This document shows, piece by piece, positions 6,155 to 64,000 of a stretch of 64,000 nt of DNA. Position 1 is the stretch's first letter. Each line of letters starts with the position of its first letter. The translations under genes and the position numbers were made by a program. Origin of the DNA: an uncultured candidatus Porisulfidus sp. (GTDB lineage Bacteria; Pseudomonadota; Gammaproteobacteria; Poriferisulfidales; Poriferisulfidaceae); NCBI GenBank assembly GCA_965116025.1, contig OZ220480.1, positions 1,344,001-1,408,000 on the forward strand. Direction: 5' to 3'. The notes beneath the pieces are model-generated. The model made no database searches. It saw only the letters and a list, made by a program, of their open reading frames with translations, and had not been told where the DNA came from.

Positions 6155-6156
6155 GG

Positions 6157-6618: not shown

Positions 6619-8312
6619 GATGCGTGGTTCTCCGTGAAGGCGAGTTGAAGGGGTTTGGTGTGTGATTGGGGAATCTGGAACGACTCCCCGGGCGGTTCGG
6701 GCAGAACGCGCATGCATTCGGCCCAAGTCGTCTGTCCTCCGCGGATCAGGTCCGTGGCGTGGTCCCAAAGGTTGCGAAAACCTCGCGCACGGGCCGCGTC
6801 GTGCAGGGACGACAGCCCGGCTCCAGCGGCGATCTTCTCGACCACCCAGGAGTCCAGGAACAAAGTTTCCGCGATGCAGACGCGTTCTCGATAGCCGCTG
6901 CCCCCGCAGCGCTCGCAACCCTCCGAGCGGGCGAGCGGCCAGCGCTCTCCGGGGGGAAGTCCAAGCATGCGGGTGGCTTCCCAGCTCGCCTCGTCGTACC
7001 CGCGCGTCGCGCAATGAGGGCAGACCCGGCGGACCAGCCGCTGCGCGCTGACGGCGGCCAGGGTGTCGGCGATCAGGTGCGAGGGCACGCCAAGGTTGCG
7101 CAGACGCTCGATCGCGCCGAAGCTGTTGTTGGTGTGCAGGGTGGACAGCACCAGATGGCCGGTCAGGCTCGCCCGGCAGGCCAGACGCGCCGTCTCCTCA
7201 TCCCGGATCTCCCCGATCAGGATGACGTCCGGGTCGGCCCGCAGAAGCGCCCGCAGGCCGGCCGCGTAGCTCATGCCGATATCGTCGTTGATCTGGATCT
7301 GGTCGATGCCGGGGATCTGCACCTCGATGGGGTCCTCCAGCGTCTTGATGGATATCTGGCTGCGGTTGCGGCGGAGGATCTCCATCACCAGCGCGTAGAA
7401 GGTCGTGGTCTTGCCCGCCCCGGTTGGGCCGGTCAGCAGAAACAGGCCACTGTTCATGGTGACGATCCGACTTAGCGACTGGACGAAGGAATCGCCGAGC
7501 GCCAGCTGGTCCAGGGTTCGCACCGAGCGCTGGTAGCCGGCCACGATGCGCAACGTGAACGAGCCCCAGACCTTCCGCCCGATGGTGACCGGGCACATGT
7601 TGACCCGGATGAAGAACGTTCGTCCCCGCAGGGGCATCTCCAGATTGCCATCCTTCGGCGTGCTGTACACCCCGTGCTGGTTCCCGGACAAGGTCAGCAG
7701 GGTATTCGAGATCAGCCGGTAGTTGCATTTTTCCGACATCACCATGCGCTCCTCGCGCAGGGTCAGGAGCAACCCGTTCCGGCGCATCTTGATCTCCACG
7801 GCCTCGTTGTCGCGGGGCACGATGTGAAGGTCGCTGGCTTGACGGTCTATGGCCAGCGTGACCCACTCGTACAGGATCCGCTCGGCTTCCGGAGACGAGG
7901 ACGGATCCTGGGCGATTTCGGAATGGGTGGAGGACTGGATCGGGATCAAGCCGGTCTCGCCATGAAGCGGGATCTCTTTCGGCAACGCCAGCCGCGGGTT
8001 GCGGATCAGATGCTGGCAGGCGAACGGGTCGGTCACGAAGAGGCGACCATCGGCCCAGGCCGAGGTCCCGTCCGCCACGTGGTCCAGGGGGCCGTGCAGG
8101 CTCTCGGAGTGCACCGGCATCGAGAACGCCTCCGCCAGGGCCATGGTGACGGACTCCGCGTCGGCTCCAGCCCGCAACAGTCGCGGGACGATGGCCTCGG
8201 GGTCGCTTGGGCAGGCCAGCTGCATGGCGTTCGACGGCAAGGCGCCGGAACTGACCAAGGCTTGCCGGATTTCCTCGAAGCGCCGCGCGACCCGCTCGGA
8301 CAGGCTCTTCAT
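6615..8312 (-). CDS. Pilus assembly ATPase (GspE/PilB/PilQ family)
   Basis: ASDLHI, Walker A GPTGAGKT, TLEDPIE, DPDVILIGEIRD, GHLVLSTLH, CPHC...CERC. Start set at ATG 8312 (ATGA overlap). Confidence 0.93.
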   Translation of the reverse strand: MKSLSERVARRFEEIRQALVSSGALPSNAMQLACPSDPEAIVPRLLRAGADAESVTMALAEAFSMPVHSESLHGPLDHVADGTSAWADGRLFVTDPFACQHLIRNPRLALPKEIPLHGETGLIPIQSSTHSEIAQDPSSSPEAERILYEWVTLAIDRQASDLHIVPRDNEAVEIKMRRNGLLLTLREERMVMSEKCNYRLISNTLLTLSGNQHGVYSTPKDGNLEMPLRGRTFFIRVNMCPVTIGRKVWGSFTLRIVAGYQRSVRTLDQLALGDSFVQSLSRIVTMNSGLFLLTGPTGAGKTTTFYALVMEILRRNRSQISIKTLEDPIEVQIPGIDQIQINDDIGMSYAAGLRALLRADPDVILIGEIRDEETARLACRASLTGHLVLSTLHTNNSFGAIERLRNLGVPSHLIADTLAAVSAQRLVRRVCPHCATRGYDEASWEATRMLGLPPGERWPLARSEGCERCGGSGYRERVCIAETLFLDSWVVEKIAAGAGLSSLHDAARARGFRNLWDHATDLIRGGQTTWAECMRVLPEPPGESFQIPQSHTKPLQLAFTENHAS

Positions 8313-48202: not shown

Positions 48203-49666
48203 CTACGGATCTGGAGAGCTCGATCCCGACCGGCCGTAGGCGTCCTCGAACCTGCTGATGTCGTCCTCGCCCAGATAGGAGCCCGATTGCACCTCGATCA
48301 GTTCCAGCGGCTCCTCCCCGGGGTTCTCTAGGCGATGACGCGCGCCGCGCGGAATGAACGTGGACTCGTTTTCCGAAAGCGTGAACGTCTCGTCTCCCCG
48401 AGTCACCCGCGCGACGCCGCGCACCACGACCCAGTGCTCCGCCCGGTGCCGATGCGCTTGCAGGGAAAGTCGCTGTCCCGGATTCACGATGATGTGCTTG
48501 ACCTTGAACCGGTCGCCCTCGTGCACCGAGTCGTAGTGTCCCCAAGGACGATAGACCTTGCGGTGGTGCAGGCATTCCTCGCGGTCCGCCCGTTTGAGCC
48601 GCTCGACCAGTCGCTTGGCGTCCTGCGCCGCGTCCTTGCCCGCGACGAGCAACGCGTCGGGCGTGTCGACGATGACGAGGTCCTCGACGCCGAGCGCGGT
48701 CACCAGTCGGGATTCGGAGCGCGCGTAGACGTCGCGGGCGTCGAGCAACGCCACGTCGCCTCGGGTCACGTTGCCGTTCTCGTCTCGCTCGTCGGGCCCG
48801 GATAGATCCGCCAGCGCGGTCCAGGAGCCCACGTCGGACCAGTCCGTCCCAAGCGGCGCCACGGCCACGTCCGCGGCATGCTCCATCACGGCGTAGTCCA
48901 CCGAGATGGAGGGGGAGCGGCCGAAGGATTCCGCGTCCAGCCGCGAAAACTCGAGGTCGGGCGCTTTCCGCTCATACGCTTCCCGGGCGGCTTCGAGAAC
49001 GCCTGGAGCGTGGCGCTCGAGCTCCGCCAGGTAGCGAGACGCCGCGAAGACGAACATGCCGCAGTTCCAGTAGCAGTCGCCCGCGTCAATGAGTCGCGCG
49101 GCCTCGTCGACGGCCGGTTTTTCCACGAAGCGCTCCACGATTCGGGCCTCTCCGCTCGCGTCCGTGGGAGATCCCGCTTGGATGTAGCCGTAGCCGGTCT
49201 CGGGGTGGTCGGGAGTGGCGCCGAAGGTCACGAGCCGGCCCCGCGTCGCTTCCCGAGCGGCCGCTTGAACCGCCCGCGCGAATTTTTCAGCATCCTGGAT
49301 GACGTGATCCGTGGGCATCACCAGCAGGAGGGGGTCGTCATCCCTGTCGTTTTGGGACAGGGCTTCCAGGGCCGCGCAGGCGATGGCGGGAGCCGTGTTG
49401 CGGGCGACCGGTTCCAGCAGGATGGCCGCGGGCGTGATCTCGACATCCCGGAGCTGCTCCGCCACCATGAAGCGATGCCGCTCGTTGCAGACCACGATAG
49501 GGCGCCGCGCGCCGTCGACCGCGTCGAGCCTCCGCGCCGTGTCCTGCAGCAGAGTGCGCTCGCCCGTCAGGGCGATGAGCTGCTTCGGGTAGGCTTCCCG
49601 GGACAGCGGCCAGAGCCGGCTGCCGGAGCCGCCTGACAGGATGACGGGATGCATGGGGTCGCTCAC
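48203..49666 (-). CDS. manC: Mannose-1-phosphate guanylyltransferase/mannose-6-phosphate isomerase
   Basis: GGSGSRLWPLSR..YPKQ, EPVARNTAPA, FVEKP, WSDVGSW, cupin RPWG...HRAEHW. Confidence 0.96.
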   Translation of the reverse strand: MSDPMHPVILSGGSGSRLWPLSREAYPKQLIALTGERTLLQDTARRLDAVDGARRPIVVCNERHRFMVAEQLRDVEITPAAILLEPVARNTAPAIACAALEALSQNDRDDDPLLLVMPTDHVIQDAEKFARAVQAAAREATRGRLVTFGATPDHPETGYGYIQAGSPTDASGEARIVERFVEKPAVDEAARLIDAGDCYWNCGMFVFAASRYLAELERHAPGVLEAAREAYERKAPDLEFSRLDAESFGRSPSISVDYAVMEHAADVAVAPLGTDWSDVGSWTALADLSGPDERDENGNVTRGDVALLDARDVYARSESRLVTALGVEDLVIVDTPDALLVAGKDAAQDAKRLVERLKRADREECLHHRKVYRPWGHYDSVHEGDRFKVKHIIVNPGQRLSLQAHRHRAEHWVVVRGVARVTRGDETFTLSENESTFIPRGARHRLENPGEEPLELIEVQSGSYLGEDDISRFEDAYGRSGSSSPDP

Positions 49667-49796
49667 GAAACTTCGGGTCGTCGAGACGGGTGACGGGCTA
49701 GTGGAGGTGACGCCATCCCCTTCACGTGGTGGCGCGTCGCCATTTCTTCCGGCGACTCATCCGTCCGCGAGATCCGGCGCTTTTCATCTTCCTTAT

Positions 49797-50471
49797 TCAT
49801 GGTTGGTATTCCTCCAGAATCTTTGGTAATTCTTCTATAGTCAAGGCGGAGCTTCTTGGTGGAGAGGGCCGCTCGAAAGATTTCAGACGATTAAGCCGTT
49901 TTCTGCGATTTTCCAGATAATATTGACCATCGACGATGACCACTAAAACGATTCCTTCGTCACAACAGAGCATGAATCGCCTCATCAATTCGACCATTTC
50001 CTTATACTGACTGTCCTGATTGCCACCACCTTCCTTTGTGTATTTGTGCATGGCATAAAAAGTTTTGGTCCCGGTCTTCCACCTGAAATCCAGTGACTTT
50101 CCAGGCAAGGTTTTTCCCTCATGCTCGGTTTCAAGATTCCCGTCGCTGGTGACCTTCATCGCTTTTGAGCCATGGGAAGGTAGTACCTCGAACTCTTTTA
50201 CATCGGGCAAGCCGCGAATCCACTCTCCGGCAACTTTTTGATGTAAGCCTGTGCGTCTTGGCTCTTTAGCGAAGTGCGCGGCGAACATTTTGTCTTCTTC
50301 GATTTTTCGCAAGACCACTTCTTCCTCGTAGCCAAACCGCATAGCGAAAGTCGCTACCCGAGCCAGCAATCGATCAGCCTTATCGCGGATCTCACCATGA
50401 ATATCCTCTTGCGACTGTTTCCACAGTTTTCGCTCAATCGCCTCGTAGTCTGGAGGTGGCCTATCCCACAT
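49797..50471 (-). CDS. Putative restriction endonuclease (PD-(D/E)xK-like)
   Basis: Overlaps the MTase 3' end; KSLDF...HKYT.EGGG.QD.Q and IVDG motifs; low GC. Confidence 0.55.
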   Translation of the reverse strand: MWDRPPPDYEAIERKLWKQSQEDIHGEIRDKADRLLARVATFAMRFGYEEEVVLRKIEEDKMFAAHFAKEPRRTGLHQKVAGEWIRGLPDVKEFEVLPSHGSKAMKVTSDGNLETEHEGKTLPGKSLDFRWKTGTKTFYAMHKYTKEGGGNQDSQYKEMVELMRRFMLCCDEGIVLVVIVDGQYYLENRRKRLNRLKSFERPSPPRSSALTIEELPKILEEYQP

Positions 50472-51396
50472 GATGGATGATTCCTCGAGCCAGCCCCCAG
50501 TCGCAGCGCCTGCGATACTTGCCGTCCTTTCTTATGCCCTTGTAGCAGGTCATCAAGACATCGAACGTTTTTTCTCGAAACCGCGCGAGAAATCCGTTCC
50601 AGTCCGCGATTCTGATATCCGTGCCCACGGAAAGCTTCGTGATGTGACGGCCGGTGGATTTGACGGCGTAGTCCGCCAGCTCGTCGACCTCGCAAAAACG
50701 AATGGACGCCTCTTTCGTATTGTCAAGGGCGATCAAGCCGACATTCCCTCGCGGATCATTGAAGACGACCCTCGCTCCGGACTCCAGCGGCGTGGGCCTC
50801 AACGCCTTGATTTCGGACAGGAGCCCTATTCGGCAAGCTCCGGACCAGACATCAACGTCGTCCACCGGGCTGGGCGCGAACAGCGCCAAACCTACCGGAT
50901 GCTTCGTGTCGGTGAACATTTCCGAGGTGAGGGAGACGAAGGATTGAAGCCGATCCTGAAAAAGGTTGGCCGTGATGAACGACTCCGGCACGAGCGCGGC
51001 CACATATCCGCAGTGATCGAGGCATCTGCGGAGAGCGAACTTGTACAGATTGTCGTAAGGACACTCAGGGAAATCCAGGCCCCGAGCCGTGGCGCTGTTC
51101 TTCGCGAGCCACGGAGGGTTGGTCACGCATGTCTTGAAACCCTCAGGAAACTCCTTAAGTGTGTCTCTGCGCCTTACGTCGCCCGCGGCCGGGGCGATAT
51201 CGAAAGACGCGAAACGCGCGCACAGTCCCATGCTGGAAAGCGTCTCGATAAGACTGTTCGAGCCGGCGAACGGCTCCAGAATCTCGCTGTTCGGCAATCC
51301 CGCCCTTTCGGCCCATTCCTCGAACGGCGAATTTCTGAACGGGTTTCCCCGAGTGAAGTAGCGGCCGGATTCGCGTTTCTCTTTGGAGGGCGTCAC
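50461..51396 (-). CDS. Amino (N6-A/N4-C) DNA methyltransferase
   Basis: GRYFT (motif X), ILEPFAG (motif I), TNPPW (motif IV): gamma-type order. Confidence 0.75.
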   Translation of the reverse strand: MTPSKEKRESGRYFTRGNPFRNSPFEEWAERAGLPNSEILEPFAGSNSLIETLSSMGLCARFASFDIAPAAGDVRRRDTLKEFPEGFKTCVTNPPWLAKNSATARGLDFPECPYDNLYKFALRRCLDHCGYVAALVPESFITANLFQDRLQSFVSLTSEMFTDTKHPVGLALFAPSPVDDVDVWSGACRIGLLSEIKALRPTPLESGARVVFNDPRGNVGLIALDNTKEASIRFCEVDELADYAVKSTGRHITKLSVGTDIRIADWNGFLARFREKTFDVLMTCYKGIRKDGKYRRRCDWGLARGIIHHVG

Positions 51397-51893
51397 GTCA
51401 TTGGCCTCCCGCCAGCGAGACCCTCGCTCTCTATCGCGATCAGGTTTTCCATTCCGAATTTCGCGTCAATTTTCAAGTTGGGGAGCTCGCTTGGCTTTTC
51501 GCCTCCACCGGAGCGGGTTTCGCTCCTCTCGGCCTGCGCGTTGGACTATGCGGGTTGCCAGCAAGGTCGCTTTGGGCCGCGTTCGCGCCGGGTCTCGGTG
51601 GCCAGTTGGTCGTGCGCCAATCCATGAAGCGGGCGCGCGGCATGCTTGTGCGGAAGCGTTCGCTGGACATCTCGCGGATCATATCGCCTTATTTCTTGGG
51701 CCGCGTCACGAGAGGTGGCGCGGCTTGGAGATTTTACGCTATCAGATCTTTTCGCGGAGCGTCTGGTCAGCCGCGCTCCGGCCGATATGGATATAATTCC
51801 CAGAATCTCCAGTCCTTAGTGGGTTCCGCACCGCTCTCGAACGCTATCTGGAGACCTTGCTCGATCACTGAACTTCCGGGTTGACCTCTGAAT

Positions 51894-53039
51894 ATGCCGC
51901 GTTTCGCTTCCCGCGATGGCCGCGCCGCTTCGGAGGCGTCCGTCTCCGTCGTGGTGCCGACGTTTCGCGAGGCGGAGAACATCCCCGCGCTGGCCGAGCG
52001 CGTCGCCGCCACGCTGTCCGGCGCCGGGCTCGAGTGGGAACTGGTGCTGGTCGACGACGATTCGCGGGACGGGAGCGAGGCCGTGGTCGCGGAGCTGGCG
52101 CGGCGCATGCCGGCGCGCATGGAGGTGCGCGAGGACCCGCCCCGAGACCTTTCCTTGTCGGTGCTTCACGGAATTCGAATCAGCCGCTTTGATCGGGTGG
52201 TGGTGATGGACGCCGATCTGTCGCATCCGCCGGAGCGCGTGCCCGACTTGCTGCGCGCGCTGGACGGCGAGCGTGACATGGTCGTGGGCAGCCGCTACGC
52301 GCCGGGCGGACGCGTCGATGAGGACTGGGGGCTGTGGCGCTTCCTCAACTCTTGGGTCGCCACCCTGCTGGCCCGCCCGCTCGTCACCTGCTCGGATCCG
52401 ATGTCCGGGTTTTTCGCGCTGGACCGCCGCGCGCTTCCGGACCTCGAGTCCCTGCGCCCGACCGGCTACAAGATTGGCCTTGAACTCATGGTGCGCGGGC
52501 GGTTGCGGGTAGGAGAGGTTCCGATCGATTTCTCGGATCGGTTCCGGGGCGCGAGCAAGATGAACGCGCGCCAGCAGATCAACTATCTCCGTCACCTCAA
52601 GCGTTTGTACCTGCACCGCTTCGGCGATCTGGCGCGCGCGCTGAGTTTCGGCGTGGTCGGGGTCAGCGGCTTCGTCGTCGACCTCGCCTTCTATCTGGGC
52701 CTGCAGGCGCTGGGCGTCGAGCACCGCTTGGCGCGCTTCCTGTCGTTCTGGCCCGCGGTCAGCTGGAACTGGTGGCTCAACCGGCGCGTCACCTTCGACG
52801 ACCGCGTCCGGCAGGGCCCGGCGCGTCAGTGGGTCCGCTTCACGGTCGCGAGTCTGGTCGGCCTGGGGGTCAACGTTGGCGGCTATCTGCTTCTGACGAG
52901 TTTCGTGGCGGCGTTCGCCCGCAACCCGATACTCGCGTTCTTCCTCGGCGTCGCCTTGGGCGGTGGCGTCAACTTCCTGGTTTCCAATCTGTTCGTCTAT
53001 CGCCGCCGCGCCGCCACGTCGCCGCGTGAGGAGCGCTGA
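51894..53039 (+). CDS. Polyprenol-phosphate-mannose synthase-like GT2 fused to GtrA-like flippase domain
   Basis: VVVPTFREAEN, VDDDSRDG, MDADLSHPPE, GSRY..GG, DPMSGFF, GYKI.LE, R..GASK; C-terminal 4-TM GtrA domain (F.VVG.SG..VD, N..LNR..TF, NF...LFV). Confidence 0.88.
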   Translation: MPRFASRDGRAASEASVSVVVPTFREAENIPALAERVAATLSGAGLEWELVLVDDDSRDGSEAVVAELARRMPARMEVREDPPRDLSLSVLHGIRISRFDRVVVMDADLSHPPERVPDLLRALDGERDMVVGSRYAPGGRVDEDWGLWRFLNSWVATLLARPLVTCSDPMSGFFALDRRALPDLESLRPTGYKIGLELMVRGRLRVGEVPIDFSDRFRGASKMNARQQINYLRHLKRLYLHRFGDLARALSFGVVGVSGFVVDLAFYLGLQALGVEHRLARFLSFWPAVSWNWWLNRRVTFDDRVRQGPARQWVRFTVASLVGLGVNVGGYLLLTSFVAAFARNPILAFFLGVALGGGVNFLVSNLFVYRRRAATSPREER

Positions 53040-53046
53040 GGGTTCC

Positions 53047-55803
53047 ATGGGCAAGGCGAGCCGGGAAAAAGCGGAGCGCAGAGTCCGGGAGACGGCCGGG
53101 GAAGACGCCGCCGGGCGCGCGGATCCAGCTCTCGTCGGGAGCGCGCCCGAGGGGCTGGCCTTGATGTTCACGAGGAAGGGCCCGCCGAGCGACTTTCCCG
53201 GCCACGCGGGTCTCGGCGTCCTGCTGCTCGTCGCGCTGGTGATCGTTAGTTACTACCCGGCACTCACGGGCGCATTCATTTGGGACGACACTATTTTCGC
53301 CTCCATGCGTCAGACCCGGGAATGGTCCGGAATCCTGGATTTCTGGTTCCGTCCGGGACTACTCGAGCTGGAGGGGCATTACTGGCCGGTCGTCTACACG
53401 ACTTTCTGGCTGGAGCACAAGCTATGGGGATTCGAGCCCGTGGGCTACCACGTGGTCAACACCCTGCTGCAAGCGCTCAACACCCTGCTGGTGTGGCGGC
53501 TGATGCTACGCCTTTCCGTGCCTGGAGCCTGGCTGATCGCCGCCGTGTTCGCCGTCCATCCGTTGCACGTCGAGTCGGTGGCTTGGATCATCGAGCGCAA
53601 GGACCTGCTTTCGGGGGCGCTGTATCTCGGTTCCGCGCTGCTCTGGTTGCGCTTTTTGGAGACGGCTCACTGGAAGCCCTACTCGCTGTCGATGATTTTG
53701 TTCGTCCTGAGCCTGCTGAGCAAGACCGTCACGGTGACCTTGCCAGCGGCGTTGCTGGTCCTGTGCTGGTGGAAGCGCGGGCGAATCGGTTGGGCGGACC
53801 TCAAGCCGTTGCTACCGTTCTTCGCGGTAGGGTTCGCGATCACCATCAGCGCCATCACGTACCAGGCGACCCGGGAGCCGCTGGAGCTCGACTACTCGCT
53901 CATCGAGCGAGCCCAGATCGCGGCGGGCGCCCTGTGGTTCTACTTGAGCAAGTTGCTGTGGCCGGTTGACCTGATCGTGATCTACCCGTTCTGGGAGGTT
54001 GGCGCCGGGAATTGGATGGCCTGGGGCTACGTGGCGGCGGCCCTCGCCTTGGCGACGGCTCTTTGGCTCGCGCGCGGACGGATCGGGCGCGGGCCGATGG
54101 CCGCCGCGGCGTTCTTCGTGGTGACGCTGTCGCCGGTGCTCGGCTTCATCGACTACGGCTACATGCAGTTCTCCTTCGTCGCCGACCGCTTTCAGTATCT
54201 GGCGGGCATCGGCGTGATGGCCGCGCTCATCGGCACCGGGACGAGCTGGGCCTCCCGATTGCCACCGGTCGGGCGAAGAGGCGTCTTGGGCATCGCGTTG
54301 ATCGGGGTGGGCGCGCTGGCGACGCTGTCTTGGCAGCAATCGCGACTGTACCGCGACGAGATCGTCTTCTTCAGCTATATCGTCGAGCATAATCCGAAGG
54401 CTCGGGGGGGGCATCACAACCTCGCGGAGGCGCTGCGGGAGGAGGGGCGCGCGGACGAGGCGTTCGCCATGGCGCGCGCCGCCATGGCCAAGAAGCCAGA
54501 CTTTCCGCACGCTTACAACAACTACGGCCTGATGCTCCAGGAGCGCGGCGAGTTCGACGAGGCGGAGAAAGTCTTTCAGGATGGCTTGAAGGTCGAGCCG
54601 GACGACGCGGGGCTCGCGATGCGACTCGCCGAACTGAGCCGGACCCGGGAACGCTATGAGGAGGCGTTGCGCTGGCTCAATCTCGTTATCGAGCGCCAGC
54701 CCGACGCCTCGCTAGCCTATGTGGAGAAGGGAGATGTCTTGTTCCATCTGGAGCGCTATGAGGAAGCCATCGAGACTCTGGAGAAGGCCCTGCTTCTGGA
54801 CTCGGACTTGCGAGGGGAGGCGATGCTGCACAACTTCATCGGCGCGGCGGCGCGGAATCTGAGTCGCTTCGAGAAGGCGGAGAAGCATTACCGGGTCGCC
54901 TTGCGACTGGACCCGAAACAGCCCCAGGCGCACGCCAACCTCGTCGAGTTGCTGGTCGAGATGGAGCGTCCTGAGGAGGCGAGGCGCCACCGCGGAGAAG
55001 CACTCGAGACGTACGCGGGCGACCCCGCTGGAATCCAGCGCGTCCTTAATCTGCTCCGGGAGCGCCAGCGATACGAGGAGGAGCTCGCGTGGCACGACGA
55101 GATCGTCCGATTCCTCCCTGGGGACGCGTGGGGGCACGTGGGGAGAGGGGAGGTCTTGCTGCATCTGGAGCGTCCCGAGGAAGCGGTCGAGTCTCTGGAA
55201 CGGGCGGTCGCCTTGGCGCCCGACGCGTCGACTGCGTCCTCGGCGCGCATGCTGCTGGCGCGAGTGGCGCGAACGCAGGGTCTGCGGGAGCGGGAGGAGG
55301 AGCTCTACCGGCTCATCCTGAAGGATGAGCCCAAGCATTTGGGCGCGCTCGAAGGGTTCGCCCGGGCGCGGATTGAGCGGGGACGTCCCACGGAGGCGGT
55401 TGAGTTCCTGGAGCGGATGATCGCCCTGGACCCCGATGGGCCGACCGCGTCCCTGGCGCGCATGCTACTGGCGAAAACGGCGCGGGCGCGGGGCTTGCTG
55501 GGACGCGAGACGGAATTCTACCTGCGCGTCTTGAAAGACGATCCGGAGCACCTTGGCGCGCTCGAGCGGCTCGCTCGGGCGCGGCTTGAGCAAGGGCGCC
55601 CTGAGGAGGCTCTGGAGCTCTACCGGAAGTTCGCGGACCTCGTGCCGAACCAAGAGGGCGCGTATGGAAACATCGGCCTTTTGCTGTACCGCATGGGCCG
55701 CTTCGAAGAGGCGCGCGAGGCGGTCGACCGCGCGCTCGCCTTGAATCCGGACCACCGCCAGGCGCGGCGCGTCCTCGAACAAATCCGCACGGAATCGCGG
55801 TAG
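53047..55803 (+). CDS. TMTC-like GT-C membrane glycosyltransferase with C-terminal TPR array
   Basis: FIWDD after TM1, GYHVVN, FAVHPLHVESVAWIIERKDLL, LLSK, ADRFQYL; about 11 TM segments then more than 10 TPR-like repeats. Confidence 0.82.
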   Translation: MGKASREKAERRVRETAGEDAAGRADPALVGSAPEGLALMFTRKGPPSDFPGHAGLGVLLLVALVIVSYYPALTGAFIWDDTIFASMRQTREWSGILDFWFRPGLLELEGHYWPVVYTTFWLEHKLWGFEPVGYHVVNTLLQALNTLLVWRLMLRLSVPGAWLIAAVFAVHPLHVESVAWIIERKDLLSGALYLGSALLWLRFLETAHWKPYSLSMILFVLSLLSKTVTVTLPAALLVLCWWKRGRIGWADLKPLLPFFAVGFAITISAITYQATREPLELDYSLIERAQIAAGALWFYLSKLLWPVDLIVIYPFWEVGAGNWMAWGYVAAALALATALWLARGRIGRGPMAAAAFFVVTLSPVLGFIDYGYMQFSFVADRFQYLAGIGVMAALIGTGTSWASRLPPVGRRGVLGIALIGVGALATLSWQQSRLYRDEIVFFSYIVEHNPKARGGHHNLAEALREEGRADEAFAMARAAMAKKPDFPHAYNNYGLMLQERGEFDEAEKVFQDGLKVEPDDAGLAMRLAELSRTRERYEEALRWLNLVIERQPDASLAYVEKGDVLFHLERYEEAIETLEKALLLDSDLRGEAMLHNFIGAAARNLSRFEKAEKHYRVALRLDPKQPQAHANLVELLVEMERPEEARRHRGEALETYAGDPAGIQRVLNLLRERQRYEEELAWHDEIVRFLPGDAWGHVGRGEVLLHLERPEEAVESLERAVALAPDASTASSARMLLARVARTQGLREREEELYRLILKDEPKHLGALEGFARARIERGRPTEAVEFLERMIALDPDGPTASLARMLLAKTARARGLLGRETEFYLRVLKDDPEHLGALERLARARLEQGRPEEALELYRKFADLVPNQEGAYGNIGLLLYRMGRFEEAREAVDRALALNPDHRQARRVLEQIRTESR
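55219..55644 (+). repeat. 213-bp (71-aa, two-TPR) tandem duplication within the TPR array
   Basis: PDASTASSARMLLARVAR...LKDEPKHLGALE vs PDGPTASLARMLLAKTAR...LKDDPEHLGALE. Confidence 0.8.
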
Positions 55804-55809
55804 CCGCGA

Positions 55810-57471
55810 ATGGGCAGAAAGTCGAGACGGAAACGATCCGCGAGGCGGAGTCCCGGAGTTCCGGCGCCGCCGCCCCCGCCTCCGCGGGAGCGCTCCTTCG
55901 CGCTCGCCGCCTGGCTGGGAGCAAGGGAGCCCGAGGGGCCTCCGTGGAGGTGGTTTCCTTGGATCTTGGCGCTGGCGTTCGTGGCGCGGGCGGCGGTCGC
56001 CCTGTCTGGGGATTTCGTGCTGCATCCCGACGAGATCATGCAGTATCTGGAGTCGGCGCACCGCTTGGTCTTTGGCAACGGCGTCGTGTTCTGGGAGTTC
56101 CTCTACGGCGCGCGCTTCTGGCTGGTGCCCGGCTTCGTCGCCGGAATTCTCGCCCTGTTCGACGCCGTGGGACTCGGCGAGCCAGTCTGGTACGTCGGCG
56201 GGGTGAAACTGGCGTTCTGCGCGGTCTCCCTGCTGATTCCGGCGGGGATGTACTTTTTCGCGCGGCGCCAGTTCGGCGAGACCGCGGGCAGGATCGCGCT
56301 GGTGACCGGCGCGTTCTGGTACGAGCTGGTCGGTTTCGCGCACAAGCCGATGACCGAATTCGTTTCGACCGCCTTGCTGCTGGTTTTGCTCGCGCTCTGC
56401 GCGCGCCCGTCCCTGGACCGGACGCGGACGATTTGGGCGGTGGCGGCGCTGGCGACGCTCATGGCGGCCGTTCGCTTGCAGTACGCGCCGCTCGCGCTGC
56501 CGCTCCTCGGCGTGGCGTTCTTGCGGACCCGGCGCAAGGCGGCGCTGGTGTCGGCGACGGGCTTGTGCTTGCTCGCGGTCGGCATCCTCGACGGGGCCAG
56601 TTGGGGTGGGTCTCTGTTTCACTCCTACGTCACCAATATCGAGTTCAACCTGTTTCTCGGCGACTACCGCGCTGGGGAGAGTCCGGGCTGGCAGTACCTG
56701 CTGTGGCTCGTTCTCGCCAGTTCTGGCCTTGGCGCGCTGTGCCTCGCCGCGGCGGCGCCGTCGCCGCGGCGCTACGGCATTCTTCTCGCGCTGATCGCGA
56801 TAGCCTTGCTAGCTCATTCCCTGCAATCGCATAAGGAATATCGATTCATCTTCGCGGTCATTCCTCTGTGGTTGCTGATCGGCTCGGATATGGTGGCGCG
56901 GATCATGGCGCGGACGGACGGAGCGTGGCGGGTCCCGGGTCTGGCCGCCGCCGCGTTCGCGGTCCTCTCCGTGGCCGGAATTCTGAACGCGCTGCCTTCC
57001 CAAGCCCAGGTCTACCACGCGTATTCGAGAGGGACCGGGTTCGTCCGGTTCCTGAGTGAGCAGGACCCGGCCTTCGCCGCCTACCGTTACCTCGCCCGGG
57101 CGCCGGACGTGCAGGCGGTGCTGCATACCGACCGGCATCACCATAACCTTCCAGGCTACTATTATCTGCACCGGAAAGTTCCGTTCTACGACATTCTGAC
57201 GGGGTCGCTCGTCGCCGGCGACGGCGAGACGCTTCGGGCGTCCGTCAGCCATATCGTCTCCATGGAGCCCGGACTTCAGGTCCAGGGCTATCGGTTGGAC
57301 CGGGCGTTTGGCGACCTTCGGATTCTCCGGCGCGAGGCGGACGAGCCCGAGATCCGCCGATGGGAGCGCTACGCGCCCGTCATGGTGAGCGTGGAGGCGA
57401 ATGTCGTGAGACAGTTCAATCCCGCCGCTCCTCTTCCACCGCCGCGCTGGGGCATTCGGTTCCAAGACTAG
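55810..57471 (+). CDS. PIG-B/ALG9-like (GT22) polyprenol-P-mannose-dependent mannosyltransferase
   Basis: HPDEIMQYLESAH...G.G...WEF..GAR N-terminal loop and HKEYRFI motif; multi-TM. Confidence 0.8.
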   Translation: MGRKSRRKRSARRSPGVPAPPPPPPRERSFALAAWLGAREPEGPPWRWFPWILALAFVARAAVALSGDFVLHPDEIMQYLESAHRLVFGNGVVFWEFLYGARFWLVPGFVAGILALFDAVGLGEPVWYVGGVKLAFCAVSLLIPAGMYFFARRQFGETAGRIALVTGAFWYELVGFAHKPMTEFVSTALLLVLLALCARPSLDRTRTIWAVAALATLMAAVRLQYAPLALPLLGVAFLRTRRKAALVSATGLCLLAVGILDGASWGGSLFHSYVTNIEFNLFLGDYRAGESPGWQYLLWLVLASSGLGALCLAAAAPSPRRYGILLALIAIALLAHSLQSHKEYRFIFAVIPLWLLIGSDMVARIMARTDGAWRVPGLAAAAFAVLSVAGILNALPSQAQVYHAYSRGTGFVRFLSEQDPAFAAYRYLARAPDVQAVLHTDRHHHNLPGYYYLHRKVPFYDILTGSLVAGDGETLRASVSHIVSMEPGLQVQGYRLDRAFGDLRILRREADEPEIRRWERYAPVMVSVEANVVRQFNPAAPLPPPRWGIRFQD

Positions 57472-57485
57472 AGGGCGCGTCGTTT

Positions 57486-57513
57486 TTGAAATCCGCGGGC
57501 CCCGCCCCCATTT
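57486..57513 (+). promoter_or_regulatory. Sigma32 heat-shock promoter of clpB
   Basis: TTGAAA-N14-CCCCATTT, near-perfect consensus. Confidence 0.75.
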
Positions 57514-57544
57514 CTCTAGGGAGAGATAGACCTTCCCTGATGGC

Positions 57545-60107
57545 ATGAGATTGGACAAGCTAACCCAGCCGTTTCAGCAGGCGTTGATGGAGGCGCGGTC
57601 GCTGGCGGTCGCCCGGGACTGCCCGGAAATCGATCCCGCGCACTTGGCGCTGGCTCTGCTCGACCTTCCGGACACCGCGGTCGCCTCGTTGTTGCGCGAG
57701 GCCGGGGCGGATATGGACCGCCTGCGCGGGCTTTTGGGCCATCGGATCGAGTCGCTGCCACGGGTGACTGGCGAGAAGGGCGACGTTGGGATTTCCGCCG
57801 ACTTGCGGCGGCTGCTTGACGCTTGCGATGGTCTCGCGCGGGAGCGTGGCGATCAGTACGTCGCGTCCGAGCTATTTCCGCTCGCCGCGCTACGGGACCG
57901 GGGAGAGGTTGGGAAGTCGCTGCGCGAATCCGGCGCGGACGCCGAGCGCTTGACGAAGGCGATTGAGGGGTTGCGCCAGGGCGAGCCCGTCACGGACCCG
58001 AACGCCGAGCAGCATCGCCAGGCGCTGGAGAAATACACCGACGACCTGACCCGGCGGGCGGAGCGAGGCAAGATCGACCCCATCATCGGTCGCGACGAGG
58101 AAATCCGGCGCGCCATCCAGATTCTGCAGCGGCGCACCAAGAACAACCCGGTGCTGATCGGAGAGGCCGGAGTGGGCAAGACCGCGATCGTCGAGGGTCT
58201 GGCGCTGCGCATCGTCAATGGCGAGGTGCCGGAGAGCTTGCGGGGCCGGCGGGTGCTGGCTCTGGACATGGCGGCGCTGATCGCGGGAGCCAAGTTCCGC
58301 GGGGAGTTCGAGGAGCGTCTCAAGGCGGTGCTCAAGGAGCTGGCGCGGCAAGAGGGCGAGTCGGTCCTGTTCATCGACGAGCTGCATACTCTGGTCGGCG
58401 CCGGGCGCTCGGAGGGGTCCATGGACGCCGGCAACATGCTCAAGCCGGCGCTGGCGCGCGGCGAGTTGCACTGCATCGGCGCCACTACCCTGGACGAGTA
58501 CCGCGAGAATCTCGAGAAGGACGCGGCTTTGGAGCGCCGCTTCCAGCGGATCCTGGTCGACGAGCCGAGCGTGGAGGACACCGTCGCGATCCTGCGCGGG
58601 ATCAAGGAGCGCTACGAGGTCCACCATGGCGTCGAGATCACGGACCCGGCGCTGGTCGCGGCCGCCACCCTGTCGGCGCGCTACCTGCCGGACCGCCGTC
58701 TGCCGGACAAGGCGATCGACTTGGTCGACGAGGCTGCCTCCCGCATTCGCATGGAGGTGGAATCGATGCCGGAGGAGATGGATCGCCTGGATCGGCGAAT
58801 GATCCAGCTCAAGATCGAGCGGCAGGCCCTGCGCAAGGAAAGCGACCCGGCATCCCGCGAGCGGCTGAAAACGCTGGAGGAGGAACTGGATCGTTTGGAA
58901 CGGGAGTACGCCGAGCTCGAGGAGGTCTGGAAGGCCGAGAAGTCGGCGGTCAGCGACACCGCCCGGGTGAAGAAGGAGTTGGACCAGGCGCGGCTGGATA
59001 TGGATCGGGCCCGCCGCGAGAACGATCTGGAGCGCGCCGCCGAGCTGCAGCACGGAATTATCCCAGACCTCGAGCGCCAGCTGGAGCGACGCTCGGACGA
59101 CGCGGAGAAGCCTCAGGCGACCTTGTTCCGGGACATCGTGACCGAGGAGGAGATAGCCGAGGTGGTGGCGCGCGCGACTGGCATTCCGGTGTCCCGGATG
59201 CTGGAGGGAGAGAAAGAGCGGCTGCTGCGCATGGAGGAGGCCCTGCACCGGCGCGTGGTCGGACAGGATGAGGCCGTGACCGCGGTCTGTCACGCGATCC
59301 GCCGCTCCCGCTCCGGGCTGACTGACCCGGGCCGCCCGATCGGGTCTTTCCTGTTCCTGGGGCCGACCGGAGTCGGCAAGACCGAATTGTGCAAGGCGCT
59401 GGCGGAGTTCCTGTTCGATCAGGAATCGTCGATGGTGCGCGTGGACATGTCGGAATTCATGGAAAAGCACTCCGTGGCGCGGCTGATTGGCGCGCCACCA
59501 GGCTACGTGGGCTACGAGGAGGGCGGCCGGCTGACCGAGGTGGTGCGGCGACGCCCGTTCGCGGTGATTCTGCTCGACGAGATCGAGAAGGCGCACCCGG
59601 ACGTGTTCAACATTCTGCTGCAGGTGCTCGACGATGGCCGCCTGACGGATGGTCATGGGCGCACCGTCAGTTTCGCGAACGCGGTGGTGGTGATGACTTC
59701 CAACCTCGGCAGCGACACGATCCGAAGCATGGCGCGCGAGCCGCACGAGAAGGTGAAGAGCGCGTTGCGGGAACAGCTGACGGAGAGCTTTCGGCCGGAG
59801 TTCATCAACCGAATTGACGAGGTGCTGGTGTTCCGCGCGTTGCGGCGCGAGCAGATTCACGCGATCGTTCGCATCCAGGTCGAACGGCTGAGGGAGCGGC
59901 TCGCCGAGCGCAAGTTGAAGTTGGAAATGTCGGACGAGGCGATCGACTTCATCGGCAACGCCGGCTACGATCCAGAGTACGGAGCCCGACCTTTGCGCCG
60001 GGCGTTGCGAGATGATCTGGAGAACCCGCTGGCCCAGGCGTTGCTGGAGGGGGATTTCCCGCCTGGACGTACGGTTCGGGTGGACCGCGGGGACGCGGGG
60101 CTTCGCC

Positions 60108-60121
<14 letters not shown>
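57545..60121 (+). CDS. clpB: Chaperone ClpB
   Basis: Two AAA modules ([16 protein letters not shown]), coiled-coil M domain, GYVGYEEGG. Confidence 0.98.
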
Positions 60122-61823
<1,702 letters not shown>

Positions 61824-61990
61824 GGTCGACGACGCTTGGCGCGCCCATCTTACAAAAACCGTGGGCATCGCCAGAATTTTGGCTTCATTCCGGCCCCGCT
61901 CGGCCGTCGCGTTGAAAGGCTTTGGCGATATCGCGTTTCTGGTAAAATCCGCCTCATTGCTCACCGCCACAAATTTCCATGAGGGCCACC

Positions 61991-64000
61991 ATGCATTTTT
62001 CTGATACCGTCCGCGCCGCGCTTCGCGGGGTTGCGTCGTCTTCCCGCGTAGGGGGGGGGGGGGGGGGGGGGGGCATAGCCTCCGTTTCCTGACCGTTCTG
62101 GCCGGCTTCACGGCCTTTCTCTCCATTCCGCTGATTCCGCACTCCGCCATGGCGGCGGACACGGGAAACTGCGGCGCTCTTCCCAGCGGCTCGGGCGCCG
62201 CCGAGATCACCTGCAGCGACCCGACTTACACCAAGCCCGACGGCCCGCCGATCGGATACGAACTCGCTGGGTCGGGCCGGAGCGTGACGCTGACGGTCCA
62301 GCCTTCCGGGGCGGGCACGGTCACCATCACGTCCAGCGGAATACCCAGCGGCGCGAGCGACGCCCGGCCGGGGATCGTCCTGAGCGGGCCCGGCGCCCTG
62401 AAGAAAGTCGTTCTCGATGGGCGGGTTCGCATTGAGAGCGACGCGACCCGGAGGCTCGTGACGGGGCTGTCCACGACGGTGACGGTCACGCGCATCGGAA
62501 AGGCCTTTGATTCGAGGGACCGCGGGGCGGGGCTCAACCATGGCATCTACGTGAAGCACTTGGGAAGCGACGCCGACGCTCAGGCGAAGGACCGCGCCGA
62601 GGTGATGGTGGGAGCCGAGGCGCGGATCGGAACCGAGGACAAGCCGATGGGCGGGTACGGCGTGCTGGCGTACTTTCAGCATGACACGGACATTAGCGTG
62701 ACGAACGCGGGCGAGATTTACGGGACGTACGCGGGGATACTGGCGCATCGCTCGGGCGGGGGCGACACCGTGATCAAGACGGCGAAGGGCAGCGTGACCT
62801 CACAAGGGATCCGGGCGTCGGCGGGGAATCTCCAGGACGATCGTCTGGAACAGCGCTGGCTCAGAGATGTATGGATAGCCCCGGGCTCGTCCCCTGGAGG
62901 CGGTGACATCACGATCGTCCATGAGGGCGAGATCGTGGTCCGAACCGACCCGCTCCGCTATCTGACCACGACGACCCCGACGACGCTTAGCCATGTGGAA
63001 AATCGAAACTCGTACGCGCGCGCCGGGATTCACGTGCTTCACCAGGACAAGAGCGCTCCGGCCGCGGACGGGCAGGCCAGCAGCGAGATCTCGATCACGT
63101 CGAGCGGCGACATCGAGATCGTGACGGATCCGGGCGTCGCGCCACGGTGGGGAACGCGAGGCGTTCTAGTCATAACGAAAGGAGACGACGATTCGGTGGT
63201 TCCGGTGACGGTGGACGTGACGGGAGGGAGCCTCATGGGAGAGGGAAGGGGAGACGGCCACGCGATCCAGATTCACCATGAGCATAACGGGGGGCTGGTC
63301 AAGGTGGATCTGGCGGGCGCGATCACCCGGACGGGCGCGAAAGGAGATGGCGTTCAAGTGTATCGGCGGCGAGCCACCGGACCGGCGACTGCCGTGAAAC
63401 CCAGCGGCATCGAGGTGACGCTGAAGTCCGGGGCGCGGATCGGTATGGAGGCAGACGAGCCGACCGTGGGCCGGCATGGCGTGCTCGTCCGGCAGCAAAT
63501 CTACGGGGGAGCGATCCGGGTGGCCGTATCCGAGGGAGCGAGGATCGGGACCGTGGGGACTCCGGTTGGCGTGCACGGAGTGTTCGCTGATGTCGTGAAC
63601 GCTGGTGACGAGACTGACGTCATAGTCACCAACGAAGGCTTCATCCACGCGAAGGGATCGGGGGTGGTCGCTCTGCATCGCGGTGTGGGCGACGCGGTCG
63701 TGAAGCATCTGGCGGGGGAGATCGTCGCGGGCGACCTGCCCAACGATTTTTCCGAGTTCATAGCGGAACACAAGACGGAGCTGGCGGATCTGGAGTCCCG
63801 GAGCGCCGGTATCCTCGCCATTCATGGAGGCTCGGAGCCCCAGGCCGTTTCCGACGAGACGGCGGTCGCTTCTAGTGATCCCTCCACCTACGATGCCAAG
63901 ATCGGGAAGATCGAGATCATGTCGAAGGGGGACATCACGTCGAAGGGCGACGGGATTCTCGCCTATGTGAGAGATCTGGACAATACGGAGGATCGGGTCG
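61991..64000 (+). CDS. Large exported beta-rich adhesin/autotransporter-passenger-like protein; frameshifted at poly-G, runs off window
   Basis: Hand translation shows no stop from 62005 to the window end (>660 codons). Signal-peptide core RFLTVLAGFTAFLSIPLIPHSAMA|AD; Gly/Val/Thr/Ile-rich repeats. RBS-linked ATG 61991 is in another frame. Confidence 0.75.
62051..62073 (+). repeat. Homopolymer G23 tract
   Basis: 23 consecutive G read directly. Confidence 0.95.

Follow-up and report, generated by a model that had tools for sequence, protein, structure and literature searches.

In actinobacteria, Ppm1 makes polyprenyl-phosphate-mannose from GDP-mannose and the GT-C enzyme Pmt (GT39) uses it to O-mannosylate exported proteins, to our knowledge the one established bacterial pathway of this kind. 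Polyprenyl-phosphate-mannose also serves in mycobacterial lipomannan, where several GT-C enzymes extend a glycolipid. Animal TMTC and TMEM260 have cadherin and TIG domains as their acceptors, and we know of no bacterium with the Dol-PP-oligosaccharide or GPI acceptors of the hosts of ALG9, ALG12 and PIG-B. Three-component extracytoplasmic glycosylation, as described in PMC11127046, combines a polyprenyl-phosphate-sugar GT2, a GtrA-type flippase and a GT-C enzyme, and includes the Gtr, Arn, teichoic-acid and pentofuranose systems. In Francisella, a DPMS-like GT2, FlmF1, is proposed to make Und-P-Man, and with it the ArnT-like GT-C enzyme FlmK places mannose on an envelope lipid, lipid A (PMC2233673).

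We analysed a window of 64,000 nt, the whole stretch of DNA presented above, in which three plus-strand genes, P0001 to P0003, follow one another with spacers of 7 and 6 nt, and manC lies divergently 2.2 kb from P0001 (Table 1). These open reading frames and spacers are as an earlier note on this DNA had described them, its family assignments are right in broad terms by Pfam and NCBIfam, and the motifs that it quoted are found in the translations of P0002 (FIWDDT, HPLHVESVAW, ADRFQYL) and P0003 (HPDEIMQYLESAH, HKEYRF); its interpretation as a whole is partly supported. The operon resembles the three-component systems, as described: its genes are clustered, its GT2 is expected to load polyprenyl phosphate on the cytoplasmic side, one of its parts is a four-helix unit of the GtrA type, and its GT-C enzymes would work outside the cytoplasm. 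The differences lie in the sugar, predicted here to be mannose derived from GDP-mannose; in the GtrA-like unit, which is joined to the synthase in one protein, the arrangement of archaeal DPMS; in the GT-C enzymes, of which there are two, one TPR-bearing and TMTC-like and the other of GT22; and in the genome, which has no O-antigen or teichoic acid to modify. Unlike Pmt, P0002 lacks PF02366/GT39 and a MIR domain and carries a TPR domain instead, and unlike the Ppm1 and Pmt pathway the operon sits in a diderm host, has an additional GT22 enzyme and belongs to a module spread across phyla. The Francisella pair, in contrast to the operon, has no GT22 partner and its genes do not form one operon. 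A keyword search of the literature found no characterised bacterial member of the TPR-bearing TMTC-like or GT22 families and no experimentally tested bacterial member of the TPR-GT-C/GT22 module.

Table 1. Features of the manC and mannosyltransferase region (positions in the window).
Feature	Position	Strand	Basis
manC, bifunctional mannose-6-phosphate isomerase / mannose-1-phosphate guanylyltransferase	48203..49666	-	TIGR01479, Pfam; ORF list
Two overlapping lower-GC genes, probably an inserted type II R-M pair	49797..51396	-	GC, sub-threshold Tsp45I match
224-aa ORF of the candidate R-M pair	49797..50471	-
311-aa ORF of the candidate R-M pair	50461..51396	-
P0001, GT2 with four-helix GtrA-like membrane domain, predicted polyprenyl-phosphate mannose synthase	51894..53039	+	5mlz match
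P0002, whole gene	53047..55803	+
P0002 N-terminal module (about residues 1–437), GT-C_A fold glycosyltransferase (modelled)	53047..54357	+	AlphaFold, VIA-align
P0002 C-terminal TPR domain (about residues 438–918), predicted periplasmic	54358..55803	+	TPR Pfam families
P0003, GT22 (ALG9/ALG12/PIG-B family) GT-C mannosyltransferase-like enzyme	55810..57471	+	PF03901

Our preferred reading, to which we give a probability of about 0.45, is that the operon and ManC make polyprenyl-phosphate-mannose and mannosylate exported proteins in the periplasm, protein being a tentative best guess for the acceptor. GDP-mannose would come from ManC, and P0001 would place mannose on polyprenyl phosphate, presumably undecaprenyl phosphate, at the cytoplasmic face, as suggested by homology over the full length and by conservation of the residues for donor, metal and phosphate. 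More speculatively, the lipid-linked mannose might reach the periplasmic face through the four-helix domain of P0001, an idea taken from one paper on an archaeal enzyme, in which flipping by the DPMS membrane domain is a crystallographic suggestion (PMC12992685). There, P0002 would mannosylate an acceptor chosen by its TPR domain; the analogy of PMT, TMTC and STT3 suggests Ser/Thr residues of exported proteins. P0003, judging from its GT22 catalytic and donor-orienting residues, would extend an acceptor that already bears mannose, possibly the product of P0002, by further alpha-linked mannose. Elsewhere, the genome encodes two TPR-GT-C paralogues that stand alone and one PMT_2 enzyme without TPRs, and these would share the same lipid donor.

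P0002 matches multiple TPR families in Pfam (E down to 1.3e-44), and the only GT-C family that it approaches there is PMT_2, just under the cut-off of 26.1 bits (24.4 for a 946-aa frame from an upstream GTG, 26.0 for residues 1–473 alone). Its AlphaFold model (pLDDT 78.9) gives the N-terminal module 11 predicted membrane helices and a GT-C_A fold, with VIA-align Z-scores of 20.1 to STT3, 18.6 to Pmt4, 18.5 to Pmt1-Pmt2, and 18.4 and 18.3 to ArnT. Because the helix count is odd and the N-terminus is rich in K/R, the TPR domain is predicted to lie on the periplasmic side, where it presumably recognises an acceptor or partner; its length of about 480 residues would be compatible with protein recognition. 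Residues D80, D81, R184, D186, K226, D380, R381 and Y384 are invariant among 27 relatives, and the features that they mark (the DD of the first periplasmic loop, RKD, K226 and DRFQY) correspond to motifs M1, M3, M4 (Lys only) and M7 of TMTC as given in PMC7801869; of the other elements named there, the M4 Glu is Thr in P0002, the M5 Asp-Trp has no invariant counterpart and M2 is partly present. The description of P0002 as TMTC-like thus holds for four of seven motifs and for the topology of 11 helices with a C-terminal TPR domain, as in animal TMTC1-4 (CAZy GT105), but not for family membership: the TMTC signature PF08409 gave no match even at E 10, and the closest relatives lie in large PMT_2/TPR clusters of bacteria, the eukaryotic TMTC cluster coming only 24th of 30.

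P0003 matches PF03901 (Glyco_transf_22) with E 2e-29 over profile positions 1–414 of 414 and is the one GT22 enzyme of the genome. In a profile of 20 relatives, its D74, R102, H341 and R345, all invariant, correspond to D82, R112, H366 and R370 of HsALG9, so that it keeps the catalytic base, the two phosphate arginines and the donor-orienting histidine described for ALG9 (PMC13503287). The best Foldseek matches of its low-confidence model (pLDDT 55.5) are ALG12 (9s6t) and ALG9 (9s6u). Bacterial PF03901 clusters are common, and 'eukaryote-like', as the pathway had been called, is therefore too strong.

The same genes recur together elsewhere. In a set of 76 related loci, which come from ten named phyla, a TPR-GT-C gene is present in 49, a DPMS-like gene (counted at 300 or more aligned residues) in 29 and both in 24, where a lack of co-conservation had been named beforehand as grounds for refutation. 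The 15 congeneric genomes agree: DPMS is found in eight, TPR-GT-C in six and GT22 in four, all GT-C-positive congeners are DPMS-positive, and none of the seven DPMS-negative ones has either GT-C. This joint recurrence means that the arrangement of the operon and manC exceeds chance, and, as judged by homology, a module of the DPMS/TPR-GT-C/GT22 type recurs in bacteria of ten phyla. The two GT-C enzymes do not always travel together. GT22 occurs without TPR-GT-C, DPMS or ManC within the stored flanks of 19 of the 76 loci, at least two of which (L013 and L059) are cut by a contig end; one congener (G015) has DPMS and GT22 with no TPR-GT-C at E 1e-30, and three (G002, G005 and G012) have DPMS and TPR-GT-C with no GT22 match. 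The fixed order of initiation by one enzyme and elongation by the other, as first proposed, is therefore unsupported.

To which acceptor the mannose goes is less clearly indicated. Across this small genome, a single contig that is 99.4% complete, Wzy_C (ligase/polymerase), Polysacc_synt (Wzx), Poly_export (Wza) and Bac_transf (WbaP-type) have no match; the earlier remark that no Wzx/Wzy genes lie nearby thus extends to the entire genome, and modification of an O-antigen or capsule is unlikely. LpxC is encoded and no O-antigen ligase was found, which makes LOS the probable surface. A Pfam search of the genome for Cadherin and TIG domains gave no match, and to the P0002 model ArnT, a lipid A transferase, is as good a match as the protein-modifying enzymes. 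The data do not bear out the protein acceptor that had been claimed.

The main rival, which we consider unlikely, is that mannose from the same lipid donor ends up on lipid A or the LOS core and not on proteins, with P0002, P0003 or both, or the TPR-less PMT_2 paralogue, acting like ArnT or FlmK at the periplasmic face before export. The place of ArnT among the tied top structural matches, the proximity to PMT_2 and the probable LOS surface all favour it, but we know of no lipid A transferase, FlmK included, that carries a TPR domain. Mannose on lipid A is cited for purple sulfur bacteria and Bdellovibrio in addition to the Francisella case (PMC2233673), whereas GT22 enzymes, in the account of PMC13503287, are known only for extending mannose on mannose-bearing acceptors. 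Furthermore, related loci carry paralogue arrays of up to four GT22 and up to two TPR-GT-C genes, and a single site on lipid A would explain these less well than a variety of acceptors or a glycan made in several steps.

These arrays, in which the GT22 genes stand in tandem, together with the TMEM260-like and TPR-less PMT_2 enzymes that related loci also hold, suggest stepwise chain building, as would be expected if the product were a lipid-anchored or free periplasmic or surface mannan like mycobacterial lipomannan. The TPR domain would then attach the enzyme to a machine for export or assembly, and TPR proteins do accompany several polysaccharide export systems. Although eukaryotic GT22 enzymes work on lipid-linked glycans (PMC13503287), we regard a mannan as a still weaker candidate, given a single GT22 enzyme, the missing Wza, Wzx, Wzy_C and WbaP-type families, a primer-making set of just one GT4 gene and two further GT2 genes, and no export gene that recurs across the 76 loci.

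The donor half of the preferred protein-mannosylation reading, from GDP-mannose to polyprenyl-phosphate-mannose, is well supported by conserved residues and gene linkage. P0001 matches PF00535 (E 7.3e-25) and PF04138 (GtrA_DPMS_TM, E 2.4e-20), and is the sole PF04138 match and sole DPMS-like GT2 of the genome. Its residues 15–365 align with full-length Pyrococcus furiosus Dol-P-Man synthase (PfDPMS, 5mlz; E 7.8e-55), from the catalytic domain through the interface helices to the four membrane helices, whereas ArnC (E 8.5e-14) and GtrB (E 9.4e-9) match far more weakly. Twelve residues named in PMC5526996, mapped by hand from this alignment, are identical in P0001 and invariant across 22 relatives: D39 (guanine N1/N2), D89 (mannose O2) and H94 (mannose O3) of PfDPMS are D55, D106 and H111, and E12, L69, D91, R117, R131, S135, K178, R202 and K208 are E26, L86, D108, R134, R149, S153, K193, R216 and K222. 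Unlike PfDPMS, P0001 is bacterial, and it has Ser for the metal-binding Gln93, Tyr for Phe177, Asp for N248 and Gly for F338. What had been read as a GtrA fusion adding a flippase is instead the membrane domain, of four helices, that belongs to the type-III DPMS architecture of archaea, a type seen by its describers in archaea only, and P0001, with DADLSHPP for DADxQHPP and the changes at N248 and F338, falls outside their strict definition (PMC12992685). That the GT2 loads another sugar such as glucose, in an ordinary Gtr-type modification module, is very improbable: PfDPMS has some activity with GDP-Glc (PMC5526996) and Gln93 and Phe177 are replaced, but the guanine-binding Asp and the mannose-contacting Asp and His are invariant, ManC is linked in several lineages, P0003 retains the ALG9 histidine by which the mannose donor is oriented (PMC13503287), and the genome has no O-antigen machinery as a target.

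manC matches TIGR01479 with E 1.6e-198 and 660 bits (cut-off 373) and has the NTP_transferase, ManC beta-helix and MannoseP_isomer domains, an equivalog-level assignment that by sequence makes ManC the supplier of GDP-mannose; the GDP-mannose dehydratase family has no match in the genome. It adjoins the DPMS gene in three congeners (G008, G010 and G012) and has GT22 no more than 10 kb away in 11 of the 76 related loci. With the conserved residues of P0001, this linkage bears out the donor order first suggested, ManC and then the synthase. ManC is present in 13 of the 15 congeners, including five of the seven DPMS-negative ones, and must therefore have another use too.

The gene pair that separates manC from the operon is outside the pathway. 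Both genes are present as had been reported, and their identity as an R-M pair is more weakly indicated: the 224-aa ORF has a sub-threshold Pfam match to Tsp45I (E 0.0023), and the 311-aa ORF has no Pfam match and contains EPFAGSNS and TNPPW, which we take to be methyltransferase motifs. They are probably an inserted type II pair; GC content is 0.574 in positions 50001–52000 against 0.646 and 0.660 in the two flanking 2-kb windows, and in congener G012 only about 130 nt separate the matched stretches of manC and DPMS.

Three closely packed genes on the + strand of the candidatus Porisulfidus sp. window, with gaps of 7 nt (P0001/P0002) and 6 nt (P0002/P0003), combine a GT2, a GtrA-type unit and GT-C enzymes, the three components of extracytoplasmic glycosylation, in one operon in which the GtrA-like unit is fused to the GT2. 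All sequence motifs that the earlier note had quoted for P0002 and P0003 were found in our translations. The divergent manC scores 660.3 bits against the TIGR01479 equivalog profile, over its cut-off of 372.95. Between manC and the operon lies a two-gene pair, of which one gene has a sub-threshold Tsp45I match and the other carries EPFAGSNS and TNPPW motifs without a Pfam match. This pair appears to have been inserted into a once-adjacent manC–operon junction, because GC dips to 0.574 there, against 0.646 and 0.660 in the flanking 2-kb windows, and because the matched manC and DPMS (Dol-P-Man synthase) stretches of a congener (G012) are divergent and only ~130 nt apart. A promoter and terminator scan of 51300-57700 was uninformative, with no promoter-like and four terminator-like sites against 5.8 expected.

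Features of the operon and its surroundings, in window coordinates
Feature	Position	Strand	Description
manC	48203-49666	-	bifunctional PMI/GMP; NCBIfam equivalog TIGR01479, E 1.6e-198
two-gene low-GC insert	49797-51396	-	between manC and operon; putative restriction enzyme and putative N6-adenine methyltransferase
P0001	51894-53039	+	381 aa; Pfam GT2 (PF00535) and GtrA_DPMS_TM (PF04138)
P0002	53047-55803	+	918 aa; large TPR region and borderline PMT_2
P0003	55810-57471	+	553 aa; GT22 (PF03901)
clpB	57545-60121		downstream neighbour of the + strand operon, 3' of P0003
surface-protein-like gene	61991-64000	+	ATG at 61991; 4.5 kb downstream of operon
23-G run	62051-62073		20 codons into the surface-protein-like gene
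long ORF	62149 to window end		at least 617 aa; beta-helix-like repeats

The donor half of the pathway, from GDP-mannose to polyprenyl-phosphate mannose, is well supported by sequence comparison. Residues 15-365 of P0001 align with the Pyrococcus furiosus DPMS (5mlz) at E 7.8e-55, and with ArnC and GtrB at 8.5e-14 and 9.4e-9. The single chain comprises a PF00535 GT2 domain and then four GtrA-like helices, as in the type-III DPMS architecture, and it is the sole DPMS-like GT2 and the sole GtrA-domain match in the 2.02-Mb genome. Following the structural description of PfDPMS in PMC5526996, hand mapping from the 5mlz alignment shows that P0001 keeps the guanine-binding Asp39 (D55), the DAD motif (D106, D108) and His94 (H111). 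Also retained are the lipid-phosphate residues Arg117, Arg131, Ser135 and Lys178 (R134 within S133-R134-Y135, R149, S153 and K193) and the acceptor-loop Arg202 and Lys208 (R216 and K222), with Gln93 changed to Ser110 and Phe177 to Tyr192. None of the kept residues varies in 22 relatives (64-82% identity), nor does Ser110, and Tyr192 is nearly invariant. Because of the full 5mlz alignment and these mapped residues, what the earlier note had described as a GtrA fusion is identified as the membrane domain, of four helices, that belongs to the one-chain DPMS design of archaea. A 2026 study (PMC12992685) reports crystallographic density suggesting that the type-III membrane domain may flip Dol-P-Man, and finds type-III DPMS in archaea only, under a strict motif definition. 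P0001 departs from that definition at three places: it has D106-A-D-L-S-H-P-P113 (DADLSHPP) for 89-DADxQHPP-96 (x = L, F or Y) and, at the pocket and gate positions of the membrane domain, Asp263 for N248 and Gly357 for F338. N277 is retained as N292, N360 stands at the R341 position, as in non-Thermococcales members, and the context of K193 is KIG, as against KIL in the definition.

P0003 matches the GT22 profile PF03901 along positions 1-414 of 414 (E 2e-29; 103.5 bits, cut-off 23.8). Searched alone by sequence against solved structures it returned nothing meaningful, and with a family profile built from 20 relatives two stretches align to the human ALG9 chain 9s6s at E 0.0022. In a mapping worked out by hand, since this chain carries D82A and a six-residue offset, P0003 D74, R102 and R345 fall at the HsALG9 catalytic base D82 and the donor-phosphate arginines R112 and R370, and H341 falls at the donor-orienting H366; all four are invariant in the 20 sequences. 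Asn288, described with these residues in PMC13503287, falls outside the aligned stretches, and the invariant N276 and N280 are only candidates for its counterpart. The top Foldseek hits of the AlphaFold model, which is poor (pLDDT 55.5), are ALG12 (9s6t, E 2.2e-7) and ALG9 (9s6u, 5.9e-6). A GT22 in a bacterium is not exceptional in itself, as bacterial PF03901 clusters are common in the ESM Atlas.

For P0002, the TPR-bearing GT-C enzyme, the earlier label 'TMTC-like' stands for the topology and three motifs. An AlphaFold model of residues 1-480 (alignment of 27 relatives, pLDDT 78.9) reads as 11 membrane helices plus juxtamembrane helices, with a K/R-rich N-terminus and TPRs from about residue 438. 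Since eleven helices follow the K/R-rich N-terminus, the TPR region would lie in the periplasm. PMC7801869 proposes the same topology, eleven helices and then a TPR region, for TMTC1-4, and of its motifs M1 (D80-D81), M3 (R184-K-D186) and M7 (D380-R381-F-Q-Y384, with Glu changed to Asp) are invariant in the 27 sequences. Of the M4 motif, KE(T/Q)xxT, K226 and T231 are present but Thr227 replaces Glu, and the M2 region is an invariant E109-G-H111-Y-W-P114, partly similar to SHKSYRP but shorter and different. The label does not extend to the PF08409 signature or to M5: residues 1-473 gave no match to PF08409 (TMTC_DUF1736) at E up to 10, and the corresponding loop of the 27 sequences holds no invariant Asp-Trp.

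Structural matches to the P0002 model are tied between STT3 (Z 20.1), archaeal AglB (18.7), Pmt4 (18.6), Pmt1-Pmt2 (18.5) and ArnT (18.4), so that the model is assigned to the GT-C_A fold without discriminating the acceptor class; no TMTC chain occurs in the Foldseek or VIA match lists. The PMT_2 score is 24.4 bits for the 946-aa frame from an upstream GTG and 26.0 bits for residues 1-473 alone, with a cut-off of 26.1. Solved structures searched by sequence with residues 1-473 alone gave nothing, and the A2 profile matched only designed TPR proteins, via its last 40 columns. The nearest clusters in an ESM Atlas feature search are bacterial PMT_2 or unnamed, from several phyla, with a eukaryotic TMTC_DUF1736 cluster ranked 24th of 30 (score 0.92).

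Co-conservation, which the earlier note had set as a test, is upheld by a nested presence pattern within the genus and by loci of other phyla. Among 15 other species of the genus, where kin are non-independent and some assemblies fragmented, DPMS occurs in 8, TPR-GT-C in 6, GT22 in 4 and ManC in 13. All four genes are present in G007, G008 and G009; GT22 alone is missing from G002, G005 and G012, TPR-GT-C alone from G015, and both GT-Cs from G010; only ManC is found in G001, G003, G004, G011 and G013, and none of the four in G006 and G014. Wherever either GT-C occurs it is accompanied by DPMS, and 0 of 7 DPMS-negative genomes have either GT-C. Each GT-C occurs without the other, so the proposal that P0002 initiates and P0003 elongates finds no support in these data. 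No GT22 was found in 25 searched genomes from other families of the order.

A scan for GT22 relatives, using one genome per species, gave 346 stretches, the best 80 of which resolve into 76 loci spread over ten named phyla (Latescibacterota, Pseudomonadota, Spirochaetota, Acidobacteriota, Binatota, Thermodesulfobacteriota, Rhodothermota, Nitrospirota, Chloroflexota and Cyanobacteriota), with two loci given no phylum; identity is 48-66% in the best aligned segment. Within stored flanks of up to 10 kb, the TPR-GT-C module occurs at 49 of the 76 loci, a DPMS-like gene with at least 300 aligned residues at 29 (14 at 60% identity or more, the others of a second GT2+GtrA type) and ManC at 11. TPR-GT-C and a DPMS-like gene occur together at 24 loci, 7 of them also with ManC, and 19 loci, at least two of which are cut by a contig end, have none of the three. 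Two or more copies are found for GT22 at 13 loci (up to four copies) and for TPR-GT-C at 20, and a TMEM260-like GT-C (PF11028) and a TPR-less PMT_2 enzyme are further recurring neighbours. A FastTree phylogeny of 95 GT22 sequences is grouped mostly by phylum (15 label changes, minimum 9), with Binatia nested among alphaproteobacterial rows and one Rhodothermaceae row among those of Latescibacterota; some of this misplacement could stem from errors in MAG binning. The ten-phylum spread at such identities points to a putative horizontally shared envelope trait.

The second GT2+GtrA_DPMS_TM type (L047, L054-L056, L060-L062, L068, L069, L072, L075 and L077) lies beside GT22 and TPR-GT-C in alpha- and gammaproteobacterial, Binatia and Poriferihabitaceae-titled loci, often adjoining ManC. 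It is only 27-33% identical to P0001, so the synthase slot is filled by two distant lineages. Four loci from alpha- and gammaproteobacterial MAGs (L057, L067, L071 and L073) carry tandem arrays of four GT22 paralogues, 50-57% identical to P0003. These paralogues group across genomes in the tree, and the array is therefore older than the lineage split or was transferred whole.

Given what GT-C folds do, P0002 and P0003 would use the lipid donor in the periplasm, and proteins, lipid A/LOS or a further glycolipid remain as acceptor candidates. We favour exported proteins, with a probability of roughly 0.45, because the TPR domain predicted to be periplasmic is large and because STT3 and PMT, two of the three tied structural classes, act on proteins. 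The genome, which is a single contig and 99.4% complete, has no Pfam Cadherin or TIG match, cadherin-type domains being what TMTCs O-mannosylate, and the Ser/Thr-rich windows picked out by a scan of the whole genome seem to be ORFs read in the wrong frame, the genome being GC-rich. When all ORFs of the 76 loci and of the window were clustered, no family other than glycosyltransferases recurred, apart from lineage-specific synteny. Mannosylation of lipid A/LOS instead of protein is a possible, if rather doubtful, outcome; Francisella FlmF1/FlmK set a direct Gram-negative precedent for it, and it is also reported for purple sulfur bacteria (PMC2233673). LpxC and two PGM/PMM-family genes are present in our genome, together with only one GT4 and two other GT2 genes. 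We consider a lipomannan-like product, which the paralogue arrays of related loci would fit, improbable. Modification of O-antigen or capsule is unlikely because the Wzy_C, Polysacc_synt, Poly_export, Bac_transf and GDP-mannose dehydratase families had no match genome-wide, and Gtr-like O-antigen modification is rejected for this genome, which has no Wzy_C match.

Should the predicted pathway be real, it would be the first diderm-bacterial pathway to use polyprenyl-phosphate mannose with TMTC-like and GT22 enzymes, families of known function only in the eukaryotic ER, and would open TMTC and ALG9-type catalysis to study in tractable bacterial systems. The one-chain DPMS architecture of archaea would then be widespread in bacteria, in contrast to its archaea-only range in PMC12992685. 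Keyword searches of the open-access literature found no paper on the module in sponge symbionts and no characterised bacterial TMTC-like or GT22 enzyme. New here are the minimal operon in a streamlined genome, a residue-by-residue comparison of all three enzymes with recent structures, the nested distribution within one genus and the finding that O-antigen and capsule machinery is missing from the whole genome. The 2.0-Mb genome holds a minimal, single-operon version of the set, with one synthase, one GT22 and three TPR-GT-C paralogues, plus one TPR-less PMT_2 enzyme, and is thus a clean candidate for heterologous reconstitution.

Two records of related loci bear sponge-derived (Porifera) names, a sponge metagenome paper mentions the genus, and the module may bear on symbiont recognition. 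More speculatively, and in our estimate doubtful, sponge-associated bacteria of many phyla might trade a mannosylation kit, made up of bacterial cousins of TMTC, TMEM260, ALG9 and archaeal DPMS, and coat exported surface proteins with eukaryote-style alpha-mannose chains that host lectins or phagocytes would read as marking a resident and not food.

Outside the operon, one TPR-GT-C paralogue is 51% identical to P0002 by tblastn (55% in the genome-search alignment). The other, at G000:C1:1445737-1447149 (-) (positions 5008-7149 of locus L092), has 713 aa and is 78% identical to the P0002 GT-C module. In this second copy the family-invariant Asp186 of RKD is Gly and Pro233 is Leu, and the gene adjoins those of an IS1595 transposase and a type I restriction R subunit; it may be a young duplicate, either in decay or with an altered function. 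Near the three other PMT_2-type genes lie genes for aminoacyl-tRNA synthetases, an integrase, the IS1595 transposase and the type I restriction subunit, along with further housekeeping genes. All three TPR-GT-C genes lie near aminoacyl-tRNA synthetase genes, namely proS (window 57545-62030), thrS/pheS (L092) and aspS/serS/leuS (L093), which in a genome this small is probably chance.

Downstream of the operon, the product of the large surface-protein-like gene is a conjectural candidate acceptor. Its 23-G run falls just before a signal-peptide-like stretch, SLRFLTVLAGFTAFLSIPLIPHSAMA, and as assembled the start frame runs into a stop shortly past the tract; a run of 21 or 24 G would bring the long ORF that follows into frame.
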